The notes under the pieces: generated by a model
The model's database searches: none
Seen by the model: only the letters and a program-made list of their open reading frames with translations
Told to the model about the DNA's origin: nothing
Shown: piece by piece, positions 11,083 to 17,549 of the stretch
Layout: every line of letters begins with the position of its first letter
How positions within the stretch are numbered: position 1 is the stretch's first letter
Program-made: the position numbers and the translations under genes
DNA from: Bacillota bacterium
Lineage (GTDB): Bacteria; Bacillota; Sulfobacillia; JAMCWA01
Length of the DNA stretch: 64,000 bases
Assembly (NCBI GenBank): GCA_023475165.1
Contig: JAMCWA010000088.1
Coordinates: 130,298-194,297 of the forward strand
Reading direction: 5' to 3'

Positions 11083-11298
11083 GTGATCCTTTGGACCGTC
11101 ATGCCTATAGAACTGGTTCTGGAAAACGCCCAGACGGCTCCGGCTTTGCTGGAGGTCCAGCAAGAGGGTCGCCTGCTTCTGGTGGAACCTCAGCCAGGCG
11201 GCCAGGGCAAGCTGGTTCGCCTTATTAGTTCCGACCCAAGCGACTACCTGAATCCTTCCTGGCAACCAGGTACACTGGTGCAACTGGGAGTCCATTGA
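11083..11298 (+). CDS. YlzJ-like small protein
   Basis: 71 aa starting 'MILWTVMPIELV', immediately downstream of tepA as in Bacillus ymfB-ylzJ. Confidence 0.5.
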   Translation: MILWTVMPIELVLENAQTAPALLEVQQEGRLLLVEPQPGGQGKLVRLISSDPSDYLNPSWQPGTLVQLGVH

Positions 11299-11624
11299 AA
11301 ACGACCGTTACCCGCCTCTTAGTTGCCGCTTCTTGCCCCCGCGTATGTCAACTACGGCTACTACGTGGTGTAAGTCCCCACATTCTCGCGTCCAAACTCA
11401 TCCGCTCGGTCTTAGTTCCCTCCGGGAAAGCGCTGACAAACTGTGCCCACCTTTGAGGGTGGTCCTGCCTTTCTTGCTTCACCATCCGGCTGGCGACCGG
11501 CTGGCAAAAACCTTGCTCCGGCTGTCACCCGCCCTTTGCATCCAGCATAGATATATGTTAGAAGTTAAGGTGTTACGTAAACCTCCGCCTGGTCCCTACC
11601 TGAGGTAAAACGCCACGCAGACCT

Positions 11625-11638
11625 TTCCGGATTCCAGG
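11625..11638 (+). promoter_or_regulatory. perfect palindrome 'ttccaggcctggaa' in the gvpA leader/promoter region
   Basis: About 75 nt upstream of the gvpA ATG. A weak TTGCAT -35-like hexamer lies at 11536–11541. Confidence 0.3.
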
Positions 11639-11709
11639 CCTGGAAAGCACGGCCTACTCCAGGGGTTATCCCACTGGAATAGAGACTAGCAGGAAAGGGG
11701 TGAGTCTCA

Positions 11710-11910
11710 ATGAAGACAGCTCTCGGGACCACAAGTTTGGCTGATGTCCTGGATCGTATCCTCGACAAGGGCATCGTCATCGACGCCTGGGCCAAGGTGT
11801 CTCTGGTCGGGATAGAGATCCTGGCTGTGGAAGCCAGGGTGGTCGTCGCCTCGGTGGCCACGTGGATCGAGTACGCCGGGGCCGTAGGACTGCTGGAAAC
11901 CGTAACGTAA
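11710..11910 (+). CDS. gvpA: gas vesicle structural protein GvpA
   Basis: 66 aa. '[53 protein letters not shown]' is a near-canonical GvpA core. RBS GGAAAGGGG. Confidence 0.95.
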
Positions 11911-11955
11911 CTTCTCAATGGAACCGGTATTCTTTCGCCGGATTCCTGGCGCGTT

Positions 11956-12020
11956 CTGCTTGAAATCGCGGAGGCATATGCCTTTAGTTCTTCCCCATCG
12001 GGGCATGTGCCTCCGCAATC
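11956..12020 (+). terminator. hairpin/partial terminator (attenuator) between gvpA and gvpN
   Basis: 'gcggaggcatatgcc...gggcatgtgcctccgc' is a long imperfect stem followed by the pyrimidine/T-rich tract 'aatcttctcttcc'. Confidence 0.5.
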
Positions 12021-12078
12021 TTCTCTTCCCTATCCGGGAACTGAGGTCACCTCAAGAACCCATAATTGGAGTGGGACC

Positions 12079-12993
12079 ATGATCGTCAGTAATTCCGTCA
12101 GGATACTGGAACTTGAAGCATTAACGGACGTCGTCGTCACCCCGTCCGTTCGCGAGGTAGCCGAGAGGGCTCTGGCCTACCTGCGCTGCGGTTTTCCCGT
12201 GAACTTCAGCGGCCCCGCCGGCACCGGCAAGACCACCATGGCCCTTTTGGTCGCCCGCGAACTGGGACGTCCCGTCGTCCTGCTCAACGGAAATGAAAGG
12301 ATGTATAGCACCAGCCTTATCGGTGGCCCCTACGGTTACCGCCACAAAAAAGTGGTCGATAACTACATTCGAACCGTCAGTAAAGTTGAGGAAGAAGTTG
12401 TGGAGGAATGGGTCGATAGCTGGTTGTCGGTGGCCTGCCGAAATGGTTATACCCTGCTCTATGATGAGTTTACCAGGTCCCGCCCCGAGGCTAATAACGC
12501 CCTCCTTTCGGTTCTGGAAGAGAGAATCCTCATCCTACCTGTGCCGCGGGGTGAGGAGGGTTCGATAAACGTACATCCCAACTTTGCCGCTATCTTTACC
12601 AGCAACCCTGAGGAGTACGCCGGCGTCTTTCAAGCCCAAGACGCTTTGCTGGATAGAATGGCCACCATCAAGCTGGACTATTATGATCAGGATACTGAGG
12701 CCAGTATCGTCAGATCCAAGACCGGGCTGGAGTCCGACGACGCCGAAAAGATTGTTTGCCTCGTCCGCTTTCTCCGGCAGAAAAAGGAGATCAAGCCAAA
12801 GCCAAGCTTACGGGCCGCTCTGATGATAGGCCGGATGCTGAAAGTGGATGGCGGTCACGCGGAACCAGAGAATCGCTTTTTCCTGGAGACTTGCCTGGAC
12901 GTTCTCGCAGCCGCCGGCACTTCCCGGGAGAAAATGGCCACTCTAATCAGGCTTTGGTTCAAGGGGGTAACTGGCCGGCATCCAGACGAATAG
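12079..12993 (+). CDS. gvpN: gas vesicle AAA+ ATPase GvpN
   Basis: Walker A 'GPAGTGKTTMA' of the CbbQ/NirQ/GvpN family. Start chosen at ATG 12079 ('MIVSNS') with RBS GGAGTGGG. Confidence 0.9.
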   Translation: MIVSNSVRILELEALTDVVVTPSVREVAERALAYLRCGFPVNFSGPAGTGKTTMALLVARELGRPVVLLNGNERMYSTSLIGGPYGYRHKKVVDNYIRTVSKVEEEVVEEWVDSWLSVACRNGYTLLYDEFTRSRPEANNALLSVLEERILILPVPRGEEGSINVHPNFAAIFTSNPEEYAGVFQAQDALLDRMATIKLDYYDQDTEASIVRSKTGLESDDAEKIVCLVRFLRQKKEIKPKPSLRAALMIGRMLKVDGGHAEPENRFFLETCLDVLAAAGTSREKMATLIRLWFKGVTGRHPDE

Positions 12994-13059
12994 CATAGGG
13001 ATGAGAGATGTTCCATGACGCCCTGGGCGGCTGGCGCAAGGAATGAAAAAGCCGCGGTG

Positions 13060-13175
13060 TGGCGACGGGTGGGCGATTGCCGGCCAAGCGATTTCACCTA
13101 GCCGAGCCCGCCACGATGCGGTCGGCGTAGATGACCCAAAGCGAGGACGGCAATCGCCTGTGCGTCGCCCATTGG
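13060..13175. repeat. degenerate inverted-repeat element related to the C-module of the dispersed repeat
   Basis: 'gggcgattgccggc…gcgaggacggcaatcgcctgtgcgtcgccc'. A second copy lies at 62200–62255 in the same orientation relative to its downstream gene. Confidence 0.5.
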
Positions 13176-13183
13176 CAAAGAAG

Positions 13184-13945
13184 GTGTTTGAATTGTCGAC
13201 TTTCATCTACCTCTACGGAGTAATCGACTCCGGACTGCCCCAGTCCCTGGGTTCGGTGAAATTGGGCTCCCTTCCCCGCGAGGTCCGCACCCTGCCCCTG
13301 GAGGAAATAGCAGCTCTGGTCAGTGAGACGGATGAGCAGAACTTTCTCCCCACCCCGGACGATGTCTTGACCCACGAGAAGGTCCTGGAAACGGCCATGG
13401 CCGAGCACACAGTATTACCGATCCGGTTTGGAACTGTGGCCGGCAGTCTTGAGGACGTCCAGGTCTTCCTCAAGGAAAACTACCGGGAGCTTGCAGCCAA
13501 CCTAAGCCAGCTGCGGGGCAAGGTGGAGGTGGGGGTGAAGGCCTTCTGGCACAAGGAAGCGGTTCGTCAGGAGGTGGAACGGGAAGTCGGTCAATTGGCC
13601 CGGCTCAAACAGGAACTGCGGCAAGCTCCCGGTCGGCAGCAAGAGATAGGCCTCGCCGTGGGCCAGGCGACCGAGGCTGTCATCGAGCGCTGGAAGGAAA
13701 CCCATGTCCAGTCTTTTCTGGCTACCCTCCAGGAATATTCTCTGAAAACGAAGATTAATCCGCCCATTAGCATCCACATGCTCCTGAATGCCTCCTTCCT
13801 GGTGGAGCGAGATCAGGAGCCTGGTTTTCGCTGTCGCGTTTTGGAACTGAGCCAGGTCTATACAAAGAAGTTTGGCATAAAGTACGCCGGACCCCTTCCC
13901 CCTTACAACTTTGTTGACGTCAGGCCGGTCCTGCCACAGAGGTGA
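13184..13945 (+). CDS. gvpF: gas vesicle protein GvpF/GvpL family
   Basis: 'YLYGVIDS...VSETDEQNF...HEKVLETAMAEHTVLPIRFGT' is the GvpL_GvpF signature. GTG start at 13184 with AAGAAGG RBS; the upstream part of the listed ORF is repeat-derived. Confidence 0.85.
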   Translation: MFELSTFIYLYGVIDSGLPQSLGSVKLGSLPREVRTLPLEEIAALVSETDEQNFLPTPDDVLTHEKVLETAMAEHTVLPIRFGTVAGSLEDVQVFLKENYRELAANLSQLRGKVEVGVKAFWHKEAVRQEVEREVGQLARLKQELRQAPGRQQEIGLAVGQATEAVIERWKETHVQSFLATLQEYSLKTKINPPISIHMLLNASFLVERDQEPGFRCRVLELSQVYTKKFGIKYAGPLPPYNFVDVRPVLPQR

Positions 13946-14235
13946 CTGGGATGCCGGAAATGAAGCTCTCTTCCCTCGATCTACTCTTCCTTCCGTTAGC
14001 CCTGCCTGCCAAGGGTCTTTGGTTTATCTTGGAGCAGATCACCGACCTGGTCGATAAAGAACTCTACGACGAAGGTACCCTGCGACGAAAACTCCTCGAT
14101 CTGCAGGTTCTTTATGAGCTGGGGGAAATACAAGACGAAGAGTATCGCCAGTCCTGGAAGGACATTACAGCGCGACTGCAGTTCCTGCGCCAACAACAGC
14201 TGAGCGATGAAAACGAAGGAAGGCAGGGGGTCTGA
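13942..14235 (+). CDS. gvpG: gas vesicle protein GvpG
   Basis: 97 aa. 'LVDKELYDEGTLRRKLLDLQVLYELGEIQDEEYRQ' matches GvpG. Start overlaps the gvpF stop (ATGA). Confidence 0.8.
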   Translation: MTGMPEMKLSSLDLLFLPLALPAKGLWFILEQITDLVDKELYDEGTLRRKLLDLQVLYELGEIQDEEYRQSWKDITARLQFLRQQQLSDENEGRQGV

Positions 14236-14240
14236 TTGAC

Positions 14241-14669
14241 GTGGCCTTGCAGGCAACCAAGGGCAGCAGCGGAACCTTGGTCGATGTCATCGACCGGCTC
14301 CTGGATAAGGGTCTGGTGATCAATGCCGACATCCTGGTCTCATTGGCGGGGGTGGAGCTCTTGGGGATCAAGATCCGGGCAGCTCTGGCCTCCCTGGATA
14401 CCGCCGCCAGGTACGGTCTTGAGTTTCCCTCCGGCACCAATTATAACACCCAGGCCTGGCGAGCCCTTGATACGGGAAGAGAAAGCTGCCCTCAATGCGG
14501 AAAAACGGCGACAACCGCGGAACTCCTGGAAGAGGGCTGTCCGTGGTGCGGTTGGAAGAGTGCCAAAGCCCGCCTGAAAGAAGCCCAGATGGCCCTTCCT
14601 GAGGTTGAGAAGGTTAACGTAAACCCACCGGAGGAACTGTATAACCCGGACGGACCGGCGGTCGGCTAG
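14241..14669 (+). CDS. gvpJ: GvpA-family paralogue (GvpJ-like) with C-terminal CxxC…CxxC zinc ribbon
   Basis: 'LVDVIDRLLDKGLVINADILVSLAGVELLGIKIRAALASLDTAARYG' is a GvpA fold, followed by 'CPQCGK…CPWCGW'. Confidence 0.85.
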   Translation: MALQATKGSSGTLVDVIDRLLDKGLVINADILVSLAGVELLGIKIRAALASLDTAARYGLEFPSGTNYNTQAWRALDTGRESCPQCGKTATTAELLEEGCPWCGWKSAKARLKEAQMALPEVEKVNVNPPEELYNPDGPAVG

Positions 14670-14800
14670 AAGACCGCTGAAAAACACCCATCTGCGGTGT
14701 GGCGCAATCGCCAGGAGAAGTTCTCCGAAAATGTGGCGTAACTATAGGCGATTGTGTCGCTCCGGCGGCTTGGTGCTCAGCCCATTTCGGGAATTTGGAG
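14666..14800. mobile_element. truncated MITE-like repeat (TIR plus C-module) inserted between gvpJ and gvpK
   Basis: 'ctagaagaccgctgaaaaacacccatctgcggtgtggcgcaatc…gattgtgtcgctccggcggc' matches 30224–30330. Its CTAG contains the gvpJ TAG stop. Confidence 0.7.
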
Positions 14801-14816
14801 CCAGGATGCTCTACCC

Positions 14817-15119
14817 ATGACCATACAAATCAACGAGAACAACCTGAAGGATGGCCTTTTGGCCCTGGTTCTGGCCCTGGTAGAAATCATAGGCGACGTC
14901 CTTCAACATCAGGCCTTCCGCCGGATGGAGGGTGGCCGTTTGACGGAGGATGAGGTCGAGAGACTGGGTCAAGCCCTCCTGGACTTGGAGGAAGCCTTAG
15001 AGAAGATTAAGCGGGAACAGGGGATCTTTGAGGCGGTCCGGGCCGTACGCCATGGTTTGGATGACGTGGTGGACGACTTCCTCGATCGGGTCATGAATCC
15101 CGCGCGTTGGAGGGATTAA
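14817..15119 (+). CDS. gvpK: gas vesicle protein GvpK
   Basis: 'NLKDGLLALVLALVEIIGDVLQHQAFRRMEGGRLTEDEVERLGQAL' matches GvpK. Start is ATG 14817 after a GGAG RBS; the 21 N-terminal codons of the listed ORF lie inside the repeat. Confidence 0.85.
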   Translation: MTIQINENNLKDGLLALVLALVEIIGDVLQHQAFRRMEGGRLTEDEVERLGQALLDLEEALEKIKREQGIFEAVRAVRHGLDDVVDDFLDRVMNPARWRD

Positions 15120-15123
15120 GGCG

Positions 15124-16518
15124 ATGGGTGAATCCCCGGATTTCCGCCTGGCCTATCTATACACCATCCTGGCCCTTTCCGCCGCCGGCAAGGAAGTCAA
15201 CCGGGAAAACCTTTTGGAGCTTCTGCCTTTGCTGGGGCTTCCCGTTGAGGAAGCCTATTTGGAAGCCCTCCTCCGACTGACCCAGATGCTGGCGCCGGCT
15301 TCTAAGAAAACAGGGGAGCCATCCTCTCTCGGCAGTCCAGTCCTGGCCGAGGGACCTGACGCATCCTGCAGCCCAGCCTCCAGCTCAGAGGGATTCCGGT
15401 TGGGGCGTCCTGACAAGACCAGGACCGAGCCCCCTGCCGATAAGCCTCCCCCAGGAAGCTGGCCTCAAGTAAAGCCGGCCGGGCCGGGATGCTGGCCCAG
15501 GACAGAACCCGCCCCGAGAGGGCATCCTGGGGGAACCAGGCCGGAACCCACAACTGAGAACCCCTTTGCGGCGAGGCCAGAAGGTACTCCGGCTGAGCGC
15601 CCCACCGAGACCAGTCCGGAAGCGTCCGTGACCGGGCCTGCCAGCCAAGCCACCCCGGAACTCTCGGCTGACCATCACCTTCCGACCCGGCCGGGGCTCG
15701 AGCACGCCGAGTTTCCCGGTGAGGCTGAGGCTCAGGCCAAATCCGACTCCCAGCTTTCCGGTCGCTATCTCTATGGGATAGTCCTGACCGATGCTTCCAG
15801 GAGCCTGGGCTACATAGGTCTGGACAAGGGCCTGGTTTATGTCATCTGCGACGGTGGGGTGGGCGCCATTGTCCAGGCCTGTTCCCCAAGACCCTATGTT
15901 TCAGAAGACGAAGAGGTGGTCAAGAAGTGGATCAGTACCCACCACGAGATCCTGGAGTCGGTCATCCAGATATTCGGTACCGTCCTCCCAGTCGGCTTCA
16001 ACACCATCTTCCAGAGCGGCGCCGGCGACCCCGATCAGGTCGTGATCCAATGGCTCTCCGAGAACCGTTCTGACCTCCTGGGCAAGATCGAAAGGGTCCG
16101 GGGAAAATGGGAGTATGGAGTACAGGTGTTCCTCAGTCCCGGCGAAATCGGCGAGAGTCTCCTGGCCAACGACCCCGACCTCAGGAGAACAAAAGAAGAA
16201 GCGAGAACAAAGTCCCCCGGTCTGGCCTATATGTATACCCATAAGTTGGAGAGGACCCTCAAGGAGCGCATCGCGCAGATCTCTGAGCTATACTTTCAGG
16301 AGTTCTACCAGACCATCAAGGTCCATTGCGAAGAGGTACGCGTTGAGAAGACCCGGCCTTGGCCGGACGGTCGACAGATGATCCTGAACCTCTCCTGCCT
16401 AGTCCGAGAGAGCCAGGTCCAACAGTTGGGCGAGGACCTCGAATCCCTCCACCGGCGTACCGGGGTTTCTGTCCGATTCACCGGTCCCTGGCCACCCTAC
16501 AGCTTTGTAAGCCAATAG
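15124..16518 (+). CDS. gvpL: GvpL/GvpF-family protein with N-terminal aL12/P-stalk-like domain and long disordered linker
   Basis: C-terminal 'YLYGIVLTDA...VSEDEEVVKKWISTHHEILESV…LPVGFNT' is a GvpL_GvpF domain. Residues 1–60 read 'FRLAYLYTILALSAAGKEVNRENLLELL…VEEAYLEALLRL'. Residues about 60–200 are P/E/T/S/A-rich. Confidence 0.8.
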   Translation: MGESPDFRLAYLYTILALSAAGKEVNRENLLELLPLLGLPVEEAYLEALLRLTQMLAPASKKTGEPSSLGSPVLAEGPDASCSPASSSEGFRLGRPDKTRTEPPADKPPPGSWPQVKPAGPGCWPRTEPAPRGHPGGTRPEPTTENPFAARPEGTPAERPTETSPEASVTGPASQATPELSADHHLPTRPGLEHAEFPGEAEAQAKSDSQLSGRYLYGIVLTDASRSLGYIGLDKGLVYVICDGGVGAIVQACSPRPYVSEDEEVVKKWISTHHEILESVIQIFGTVLPVGFNTIFQSGAGDPDQVVIQWLSENRSDLLGKIERVRGKWEYGVQVFLSPGEIGESLLANDPDLRRTKEEARTKSPGLAYMYTHKLERTLKERIAQISELYFQEFYQTIKVHCEEVRVEKTRPWPDGRQMILNLSCLVRESQVQQLGEDLESLHRRTGVSVRFTGPWPPYSFVSQ

Positions 16519-16600
16519 GGTGCTGGAAAAGCACCCGCGGCAGTGCGACTACATTTCACGGGAGCCTTTTCCAAAAATCCTGGCAGATGAGGGCTGTCCC

Positions 16601-16912
16601 ATGAAGCCTACGGGTACTGCGCAAGCTACCTTAACCGACCTGCTGGACCGAGCCTTCGACAAGGGGCTGGTCTTAACCGCCGATGTCATCATCAGCGTCT
16701 CCGGGATTCCCTTACTCGGTCTCAACATACGGGCCATTTTGGCCGGTATGGAGACCTTGCTGGAGTACGGAATCATGGCCGACTGGGATAAAGCCCAGAG
16801 GAAGGCCTTTAGGAAAACACCGCAGAGGAACCCGCTGATCTTTTCTGAAAAAGGGCCGTGGCCGATTACTGGAGGGTCAAACCTATGCTCCACGAATCTC
16901 TGCCCCGATTAA
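16601..16912 (+). CDS. gvpS: GvpA-family paralogue (GvpS/GvpM-like)
   Basis: 'ATLTDLLDRAFDKGLVLTADVIISVSGIPLLGLNIRAILAGMETLLEYG'. ATG 16601 with a GAGGG RBS. Confidence 0.8.
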   Translation: MKPTGTAQATLTDLLDRAFDKGLVLTADVIISVSGIPLLGLNIRAILAGMETLLEYGIMADWDKAQRKAFRKTPQRNPLIFSEKGPWPITGGSNLCSTNLCPD

Positions 16913-17298
16913 GGGGGTTCCGCCAGTTGAAAAGTGGCCTGGATCTGACTCGCAGGCGAGAACCCAAAACCAGGCACTCCCTTACCCGCTTAGAGGAAAA
17001 CACCCCGGTGAGGGTAAACCGGCTCTCCCTGGCCAGGAGAATGCGAAGGGCAAGAGACTTTTTTGCCCGCCTACAGGCAAGCGTCACTGGCTTTCAAGAG
17101 AGAATGCTGCGGCAACGGGAAAAGCTCAAGGCGTTAAAAGAAGAAAACCGCCGGCTGGCACAATACCGACTGCGCGGCCAGCGGGAGGAGCAGAACGGGT
17201 CAAAAAACGCCCGGGAAAAGCCTGGACCGGCCCTTTCCGGCGCAGCGCTAAATCAACCCCAGGGAGGAGCAACAAGAAGATGGATTTGGATAAAGTGA
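16885..17298 (+). CDS. hypothetical basic, Arg-rich coiled-coil protein in gvp locus
   Basis: It fills the 370 nt gap between gvpS and gvpO. GGAGGG RBS before ATG 16885. 'RMLRQREKLKALKEENRRLAQYRLRGQREEQ' is a predicted coiled coil. No recognisable family. Confidence 0.4.
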   Translation: MLHESLPRLRGFRQLKSGLDLTRRREPKTRHSLTRLEENTPVRVNRLSLARRMRRARDFFARLQASVTGFQERMLRQREKLKALKEENRRLAQYRLRGQREEQNGSKNAREKPGPALSGAALNQPQGGATRRWIWIK

Positions 17299-17549
17299 TC
17301 CAGCGAGGCGTCTCCACCGTCAAGGAGCTCACCGGCTTGAAACCTTCCACGGTTACGGGAATCAGTCTGGAAGCAGGCAAATGGCTTCTCAGCTTGGAAA
17401 TGGTGGAGATGTCTTCCATTCCCAATGCCATGGACATCCTGGGTCTCTATGACGTCCAACTGGACGAAAACGGGTCACTGCTCTCTTTCCAACGTAGAGG
17501 CCTCCGCCGCCGTGGTGATACCCCAGAGGGTAAACTGGATACAGATTGA
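17280..17549 (+). CDS. gvpO: gas vesicle protein GvpO
   Basis: 'SIPNAMDILGLYDVQLDENGSLLSFQRRGLRRRGD' matches the GvpO C-terminal motif 'DIIGRYEITLD..G.V..YE...RYRRGD'. Confidence 0.75.
   Translation: MDLDKVIQRGVSTVKELTGLKPSTVTGISLEAGKWLLSLEMVEMSSIPNAMDILGLYDVQLDENGSLLSFQRRGLRRRGDTPEGKLDTD

Follow-up and report, generated by a model that had tools for sequence, protein, structure and literature searches.

A conserved four-cysteine ribbon on a GvpJ-type gas-vesicle protein, a candidate docking module for vesicle seeding

A complete gas-vesicle gene cluster, gvpA-N-F-G-J-K-L-M-X-O, was found with all of its genes on the + strand of a 64,000-nucleotide (nt) stretch of DNA from a Bacillota bacterium (contig JAMCWA010000088.1 of assembly GCA_023475165.1, positions 130,298 to 194,297), the whole of which is referred to here as the window. 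The subject of this study is the gvpJ gene of this cluster, named gvpJ-Zn, which occupies 14241..14669 (+) as a continuous open reading frame (ORF) with a GTG start and a TAG stop, and encodes a protein of 142 amino acids (aa), MALQATKGSSGTLVDVIDRLLDKGLVINADILVSLAGVELLGIKIRAALASLDTAARYGLEFPSGTNYNTQAWRALDTGRESCPQCGKTATTAELLEEGCPWCGWKSAKARLKEAQMALPEVEKVNVNPPEELYNPDGPAVG. An initial annotation, made from the DNA letters, had described this product as a GvpA-fold paralogue carrying a C-terminal zinc ribbon, and the segment CPQCGKTATTAELLEEGCPWCGW is present letter for letter in the translation of 14241-14669. Homologues starting with ‘MALQAT...’ back the chosen start, and a protein identical to GvpJ-Zn (P0001) is deposited as a ‘gas vesicle protein’ of a Bacillota (Firmicutes) metagenome-assembled genome (MAG). 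The only cysteines of GvpJ-Zn are residues 83, 86, 100 and 103 (codons at 14487, 14496, 14538 and 14547), which are arranged as CPQC-X13-CPWC over residues 83-103. When the 64-kb window was translated in six frames, the pattern CxxC-X8-25-CxxC appeared twice in total, the other occurrence lying in a 34-aa non-coding segment.

The Pfam family Gas_vesicle (PF00741) matches residues 12-50 of GvpJ-Zn with 58 bits against a cut-off of 25, and the full profile is covered. Among the NCBIfam models, GvpJ ranked first with 90.6 bits, followed by GvpM (56.8 bits) and GvpA (56.5 bits). This score does not reach the cut-off of 125 bits of halo_gas_GvpJ, an ‘exception’ model tuned to haloarchaea, and the shortfall excludes membership of that narrow group only, not of GvpJ in the broad sense. 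Moreover, two motifs specific to GvpJ and GvpM were read in the protein, 46-RAALA-50 and 57-RYGL-60, following the criterion that RAAxA and (E)YGL are limited to these two proteins (PMC8716928). Judged by these profiles and motifs, GvpJ-Zn is a GvpA-fold paralogue of the GvpJ type, as had been proposed, and because it is the sole GvpJ-type gene of the cluster, it is the cluster's own GvpJ and not an extra paralogue.

The protein structure was predicted with AlphaFold2 (AF2), which was run twice: a shallow alignment gave a predicted local distance difference test (pLDDT) score of 61 and wrongly placed a helix where the beta hairpin belongs, while a diverse alignment gave a mean pLDDT of 76. In the latter, the GvpA fold (14277..14414, +; AF2 model mcbc89a2933b7) is composed of alpha1 (residues 13-23), beta1 (25-35), beta2 (38-49) and alpha2 (52-58). 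It is followed by the J-type linker YGLEFPSGTNYNTQAW and a short helix at residues 71-77 (together 14412..14477, +), in which P63, G65, T66 and W73 are invariant in a 42-sequence alignment (A1). The four-cysteine ribbon comprises residues 80-105 (14478..14555, +; pLDDT 95-96), with its cysteines invariant in alignments A1 and A4. Its first knuckle, CPQC (residues 83-86, nt 14487-14498, +), lies between the strands 80-82 and 89-91, and its second, CPWCGW (residues 100-105, nt 14538-14555, +), comes after a helix at residues 92-97. Directly after the ribbon stands a basic helix (KSAKARLKEAQ), annotated as KSAKARLKEAQMA over residues 106-118 (14556..14594, +), with S107, A108 and A110 conserved and an AF2 helix at 108-118 (pLDDT ~92). 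Confidence over residues 80-120 as a whole is pLDDT 92-96. The protein ends with an acidic, proline-containing tail (residues 119-142, 14595..14666, +; net charge −4, four prolines), which is not conserved, most homologues ending at ~115-126 aa without it. The acidic/Pro tail of the initial annotation thus does exist, with the refinement that the basic helix lies between it and the ribbon.

In comparisons with solved structures, Foldseek retrieved the GvpA shell structures 7r1c and 8gbs from the PDB at probability 1.0, and phmmer aligned GvpA over residues 1-59 (E 1e-11 and 2e-10) as the only matching solved structure. With its two CxxC pairs placed at hairpin turns, the C-terminal segment is, in the predicted fold, a two-knuckle zinc-ribbon-type module. 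The AF2 model contains no metal; a bound metal would most likely be zinc.

The first homology search returned 3519 relatives of GvpJ-Zn, and CxxC-X13-CxxC was present in 120 of the 120 best of these (65-77% identical, from independent metagenomes and MAGs). In alignment A1, the invariant positions are C83, C86, C100, P101, C103, G104, W105, S107, W73, E81 and L95, and in a more divergent alignment of 38 homologues, reaching down to 35% identity, four of the ten invariant columns are the cysteines. Among 81 genomic copies, the spacer between the CxxC pairs has 13 residues in 79 genes and 14 in two, the second knuckle reads CPWCGW in 78, and the residue after the first knuckle varies (G/S/N/E/D). 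TGC and TGT are about equally frequent at each of the four cysteine positions. Because the motif is kept at low identity with synonymous TGC/TGT turnover, the conservation reflects selection on the amino acids and not shared DNA ancestry. The Cys pairs had been named as the feature whose absence from relatives would tell against the annotation, and they are instead invariant in bacteria and archaea; likewise, the C-terminal extension is translated and under selection, with no frameshift. We regard a real, selected, metal-binding four-cysteine knuckle domain as very probable, and the CxxC-X13-CxxC module, exact in the translation, universal among the best homologues and ribbon-like in the AF2 model, holds as annotated.

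Compared across related clusters, GvpJ-Zn shows a median identity to the window protein of 69.8%, against 63.9% for GvpA, 60.6% for GvpK and 32-41% for GvpF, G, L and O. It is the most conserved protein of these clusters, in a comparison that is biased by the choice of the loci through their GvpJ match. By segment, the median identity is 82.8% for the core and 61.8% for the ribbon alone, so that even the ribbon stands well above GvpF, G, L and O.

To describe the distribution, one genome per GTDB species was scanned, which gave 495 species with a relative; the figures for loci given here refer to the best 80 of these. A ribbon-bearing GvpJ was found in all 80 loci, which span ~18 phylum-level groups of bacteria and archaea. 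The bacterial carriers belong to the Dehalococcoidia and other Chloroflexota, Atribacterota, Nitrospirota, Nitrospinae, Zixibacteria, Omnitrophota, Desulfobacterota, Actinomycetota, Thermotogota, Patescibacteria, Bacillota (Syntrophomonas, Desulfosporosinus, Fermentithermobacillus), Bacteroidota (Prolixibacteraceae, Mariniphaga) and Ignavibacteria, and the archaeal ones to ANME-1 Methanophagales, Methanomicrobiaceae and a Halobacteriota MAG. Cultured carriers include Streptomyces abyssomicinicus, Streptomyces sp. SGAir0924, Micromonospora pattaloongensis, Natronococcus occultus SP4, Natrinema zhouii and Candidatus (Ca.) Formimonas warabiya; most carriers are anaerobes of sediment or subsurface. 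The Bathyarchaeia have more divergent ribbons, their spacers being 11-14 residues long, and the Joint Genome Institute (JGI) labels these ‘rubredoxin’. This spread rules out a lineage-specific oddity. The ribbon, conserved across hundreds of bacteria and archaea, is the mark of a very large GvpJ clade that shares the linker ‘YGLEFPSGT..AW’. The initial annotation had called a metal-binding ribbon on such a protein unusual; this is right with respect to the Halobacterium and classical Streptomyces GvpJ, but the ribbon is the rule across this clade, and it also occurs on GvpM-like and free-standing proteins.

When gain and loss were mapped on the GvpJ core, ribbon-less forms were found interspersed, many of them being frameshifted gene calls. 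In the set of representatives at 50% identity, seven close relatives that appear ribbon-less (P0135, P0140, P0145, P0153, P0161, P0172 and P0188) seem to be frameshifted or truncated calls, with tails that are either Arg-rich nonsense or keep the second knuckle alone. Since several are such calls, database counts of ‘ribbon-less’ GvpJ in this clade are inflated. A set of 5.8 billion proteins was also searched, with a word index that limits the candidates, so that the hits are no census: the C-terminal half of the window protein gave 86 hits, all of them PF00741 proteins, and a 47-aa module alignment led to 10 small proteins.

The same ribbon was found on other proteins by a hidden Markov model (HMM) built from GvpJ ribbons alone. 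In the window, GvpJ-Zn scored 63.8 bits and the next best protein 8.5, making GvpJ the only carrier there. In other loci, long GvpM-like proteins scored 30-50 bits and small free-standing proteins ~34, while unrelated zinc ribbons of the same loci stayed below 8. The signature C-P-x-C-x-K...E-L-L-x-x-G-C-x-x-C-G-W, followed by basic residues, is common to GvpJ, the long GvpM-like and the free-standing proteins, and is specific to gvp loci within what was searched. The long GvpM-like proteins (~250-380 aa), encoded after gvpL, begin with a GvpA fold, continue with one or two GRAM/GLUE (PH-like) repeats and end in a C-terminal ribbon that is ~250 residues away from the GvpA fold. Examples are found in loci L001 (8380-9465), L010 (10132-11205), L013 (10427-11566) and L085 (12604-13653), the repeats carrying the motif ‘GIY..W.PG.LYLT.KR’; the GRAM match scores 24.1 bits in Pfam against a cut-off of 23.6. 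It is unexpected to see PH-like domains on a paralogue of the gas-vesicle shell protein, where they might make contact with lipid or protein.

The small proteins (~100-165 aa) are encoded between gvpJ and gvpK and contain two tandem ribbons, CPxCG-X11-GCxxCGW, and no GvpA fold (for example L001 9680-10072, L002 8388-8714, L005 7367-7777 and L011 2786-3217). A conserved aromatic pair (Y/W) stands right before their first cysteine. Such a free ribbon protein is present between gvpJ-Zn and gvpK in at least 12 of 66 loci, and is absent from the window. The small proteins retrieved by the module profile carry DUF7560 (PF24441), whose cut-off of 27 bits is passed by the free-standing double-ribbon protein of L002 (28.1 bits). 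On the GvpJ ribbon itself DUF7560 is the best Pfam match but stays below that cut-off (16.9 bits in the window protein, 21.2 bits in a homologue), as does Zn_ribbon_3 (16.2 bits, cut-off 27). In L002, a GvpM-like protein (11285-11944) has the C-terminal end ECPCGWTSPKLKR, in which an internal deletion removes the first CxxC pairing and the spacer; from its sequence it is apparently a decayed copy of the module.

The gene order around gvpJ-Zn is fixed to a large extent. gvpK and gvpL lie 3′ of gvpJ-Zn in 66 of the 80 loci, and gvpK is the next gene in 51 of those 66. A GvpM-type gene comes after gvpL in 44 of 58 readable cases, in 27 as the long form and in 20 with a ribbon. In addition, J(Zn)-(GvpM-like or other)-K-L cassettes were found that have no gvpA, gvpN, gvpF or gvpG within 8-10 kb: in Ca. 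Formimonas warabiya (L085, CP017634, 7310-13653), Micromonospora pattaloongensis (L084, 9141-12482), a plasmid of Streptomyces sp. SGAir0924 (L082, 8001-10594), plasmid 2 of Natronococcus occultus (L081, 8001-10568), and L001, L038 and L073. By tblastn, two whole plasmids contained no further GvpA-family match. In Formimonas, an Hsp20-like gene and the gene of a CDC48-type double AAA+ ATPase stand ahead of the cassette, which between its J and K genes encodes a 261-aa protein with two alpha-crystallin-like repeats (GvpH-like). A metallo-beta-lactamase-fold (MBL-fold) metallo-hydrolase gene lies directly 5′ of gvpJ-Zn in two unrelated organisms, Natronococcus (L081 6836-7693) and Micromonospora (L084 9141-9851).

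Within the window, gvpJ-Zn is preceded by gvpA (11710-11910, +), gvpN (12007-12993, +), gvpF (13043-13945, +) and gvpG (13942-14235, +; PF05120, 61 bits), the stop codon of gvpG lying 6 nt before the start of gvpJ-Zn. About 54 N-terminal residues of the gvpF ORF fall outside the GvpL/GvpF profile, and the ORF is ~50 aa longer than its homologues; translation probably does not begin at its annotated ATG. At 11936-11951 (+), 26 nt past the gvpA stop, a GC-rich hairpin followed by T-rich sequence resembles a terminator, and the remaining downstream candidates on the + strand have weaker stems and lie inside coding sequence. This hairpin may be an attenuator that holds accessory genes such as gvpJ below the expression of gvpA.

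On the other side, gvpK (14754-15119, +; PF05121, 68.5 bits) starts 85 nt 3′ of gvpJ-Zn, and is followed by gvpL, of the GvpL/GvpF family (15124-16518, +; PF06386 on residues 213-462). An N-terminal low-complexity extension of ~210 aa, rich in Pro, Glu, Thr, Ser and Ala, stands ahead of the GvpL/GvpF domain, and among related loci the length of GvpL ranges from 253 to 481 aa. The gvpM-like gene (16520-16912, +) encodes a short GvpA paralogue without ribbon (PF00741; NCBIfam GvpM, 80.6 bits over residues 28-94), and its true start is probably the Met at 16601. ORF X (16858-17298, +) shares its first 55 nt with the 3′ end of the gvpM-like gene and precedes gvpO (17280-17549, +). Its 146-aa, Arg-rich product has no match in Pfam or NCBIfam and is probably a coiled coil. 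Homologues of ORF X with 31-36% identity occur in other clusters: those of Dehalococcoidia loci lie between gvpA and gvpN, and those of L016 and L067 lie, as in the window, between gvpM and gvpO. We considered whether the short GvpM of the window could be a long GvpM cut short, its remainder continuing out of frame as ORF X; this was ruled out, L016 and L067 sharing M-X-O as separate genes.

Taking these observations together, we propose, with a probability of roughly 55%, that the ribbon, stabilised by metal and portable between proteins, would serve the seeding complex as a docking module on the cytoplasmic face, in place of the C-terminal region of haloarchaeal GvpJ. The GvpA-fold core (alpha-beta-beta-alpha) of GvpJ-Zn would insert into, or template, the gas-vesicle wall, and would be followed by the conserved linker, the metal-stabilised Cys4 ribbon (most likely zinc) and the short basic helix. 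In GvpA, alpha1-beta1-beta2 faces the gas, and helix alpha2 lies outside as the GvpC binding site (PMC9994262). Because alpha2 of GvpA and what comes after it face the cytoplasm, the ribbon would by homology be displayed outward, on the cytoplasmic side of the wall. The rigid ribbon may then recruit, or be held by, components of the early ‘seeding’ complex, most likely GvpK and GvpL, which are encoded by neighbouring genes, as well as GvpM and GvpG. It would thus take the role of the essential, cluster-specific hydrophilic C-terminal region of Halobacterium GvpJ. Three observations argue for such a module: the J-K-L-M gene order is fixed, J(Zn)-(M)-K-L cassettes survive with no gvpA, gvpN, gvpF or gvpG nearby, and the same ribbon is present at variable distance from the GvpA fold or on proteins that have no such fold.

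Several points weigh against this proposal. The partners named above are candidates, and GvpL may not be among them, because the J-L interaction of Halobacterium does without the last 30 aa of GvpJ (PMC8716928). The very high conservation of the protein could instead reflect lattice-like self-contacts. Ribbon-type clusters are, judged by their genes, putative gas-vesicle makers. As for the fold, Foldseek searches of the PDB with two models gave no significant match to a solved zinc ribbon, the non-significant tail of hits being mixed zinc ribbons, and scans of the isolated C-terminus against Pfam and NCBIfam gave dozens of weak zinc-ribbon matches and none at threshold.

The ribbon may alternatively be a passive stabiliser, in which a Cys4 knuckle rigidifies or solubilises the C-terminus of a hydrophobic protein, or supports J-J self-contacts in the lattice of the cone tip, without a dedicated heterologous partner. 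Zinc knuckles are often purely structural, and the rank of GvpJ-Zn as the most conserved protein of its cluster, in its core above all, is what a lattice subunit would show; furthermore, in the pNL29 system GvpJ forms SDS (sodium dodecyl sulfate)-insoluble oligomers (PMC11445434). We nevertheless consider this explanation unlikely, though deserving of attention, as the module stands ~250 residues from the GvpA fold in the long GvpM-like proteins and also occurs in proteins with no GvpA fold. A module that occurs at varying distances from the shell fold, and also on proteins lacking that fold, fits a docking tag better than a lattice-packing element. A bolder reading would make GvpJ-Zn, instead of a minor cap, the subunit that forms the lattice in a distinct J-K-L-M ‘nucleation cassette’, where outward ribbons of GvpJ, long GvpM and free double-ribbon proteins interlock into the first bicone and the gvpA-less cassettes (Ca. 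Formimonas, Micromonospora, Streptomyces plasmid, Natronococcus plasmid, ANME-1) build a GvpA-independent nanostructure; we hold this to be rather improbable.

A redox or metal sensor is likewise improbable; here a rubredoxin-like Fe(Cys)4 centre, or a Zn(Cys)4 centre that is redox-labile, would make vesicle nucleation depend on oxygen, redox state or metal supply. As in rubredoxins, each knuckle is CPxCG-like, and the spacing resembles that of the rubrerythrin C-terminal domain. RUBY_RBDX gives weak, near-full-length matches (profile positions 3-28 of 30, E 0.0095-0.039), Bathyarchaeia homologues bear the ‘rubredoxin’ label mentioned above, and the carriers are mostly anaerobes. However, the matches to the rubrerythrin C-terminal type PF21349, at 13.8-15.8 bits, fall far under the threshold of 26.5, and the module is also found in the aerobes Streptomyces, Micromonospora and Natronococcus. 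Besides, the variable residue after the first knuckle differs from the strict Gly of rubredoxins, and no redox partner genes are linked to the loci. If the domain did answer to changes in redox state or in the supply of metal, vesicle initiation would have its first known post-translational switch.

Binding of the ribbon and basic helix to DNA or RNA, for instance in autoregulation of the gvp operon or in nucleation coupled to gvp mRNA, appears very unlikely. Many zinc ribbons bind nucleic acids, the 12 residues past CGW have a mean net charge of +2.6 across homologues, and JGI auto-annotations take the names of nucleic-acid-binding zinc ribbons; but those names stem from weak generic similarity, with no family at threshold, the ribbon segment of the window protein is itself acidic (net −3), the protein is anchored by a hydrophobic shell fold, and nothing in the loci suggests a conserved nucleic-acid target. 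Of the two kinds of contact that the initial annotation had suggested for vesicle initiation, protein contact is the best-supported reading, and nucleic-acid contact found no support. A chance motif, a frameshift or an untranslated extension has practically no probability left, nothing having been found for it and the continuous ORF, the identical deposited protein, the 120/120 homologues, the 80/80 loci and the synonymous codon turnover ruling it out.

Nucleation is the main open question on gas vesicles, and the seed is suspected to consist of GvpJ, K, L and M (or S). In the pNL29 operon, the GvpA2-GvpL interaction needs each of GvpJ, GvpK and GvpS, which were proposed as vesicle seeds, with GvpJ and GvpS staying in urea-washed bicones (PMC11445434). 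Mechanistic work so far has concerned systems in which the C-terminus of GvpJ is disordered or helical and cluster-specific. A natural GvpJ clade with a small, folded, conserved domain that would bind metal, and that is reused on GvpM-like and free-standing proteins, offers a tractable handle on nucleation. The signature CPxC-X13-CxxCGW together with the J-K-L-M cassette sets this type of cluster apart in metagenomes, and flags candidate clusters from anaerobes for the engineering of acoustic reporter genes. In the searchable literature, subscription-only papers lying outside this scope, no paper connecting gas vesicles with a zinc ribbon was found, and the sole zinc-finger remark concerns haloarchaeal GvpC. 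Nor was a description found there of the domain, of how invariant and widespread it is, or of its recurrence on GvpM-like and free-standing proteins; GvpJ as a kind of protein is already known, and thousands of ribbon-bearing copies are in the databases as ‘gas vesicle protein’.

Compared with known proteins, the ribbon resembles generic Cys4 ribbons and rubredoxin-like knuckles (HypA, eL43/L37ae, TFIIB, rubrerythrin C-terminal domain) in having two CxxC pairs 12-17 residues apart and weak sequence matches, but differs from them in that no match reaches a curated threshold or structural significance. DUF7560 (PF24441) is likewise a family of small zinc-ribbon proteins and the best Pfam match of the module, although it has no assigned function or gas-vesicle link and the GvpJ ribbon remains below its threshold. 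A zinc-finger motif in the C-terminal domain of haloarchaeal GvpC is a precedent for a metal-binding motif on an outer-surface gas-vesicle protein (PMC9501494), whereas GvpC is built of helical repeats, does not belong to the GvpA-fold paralogues and showed no relationship in sequence. GvpA (PDB 7R1C, 8GBS) shares the fold and aligns with residues 1-59, but ends soon after alpha2 and has no linker, ribbon or basic helix.

Among proteins of the same kind, the classical Streptomyces GvpJ (S. fungicidicus p1 cluster gvpO-A-F-G-J-L-S-K, L087 6953-7369) is also a GvpA-fold minor paralogue in a gvp cluster, but differs in its Bacillus-like alpha2 and linker ‘AGIDWWETDP’, its helical charged C-terminus and the absence of a Cys4 motif. 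The GvpJ proteins of B. megaterium, Anabaena and Serratia are not known to carry a Cys4 motif either. The GvpJ of Halobacterium salinarum (p-vac; WP_010890526) has the GvpA-fold core, RAAxA and (E/R)YGL at the same positions, the linker ‘YGLEFP.GT’ and a gene directly upstream of gvpK. Unlike GvpJ-Zn, its C-terminal half is acidic, Ser/Thr-rich and Cys-free, as its authors likewise state (PMC8716928), with neither ribbon nor basic helix. This C-terminal region is essential and binds accessory Gvp proteins: residues 62-114 were described as ‘unique’, cluster-type-specific and essential, C-terminal deletions of 5-30 aa all abolish vesicles, and the fragment J47-114 binds GvpG, GvpH, GvpL and fragments of GvpM and GvpA, and more weakly GvpJ, GvpK and full-length GvpM (PMC8716928).

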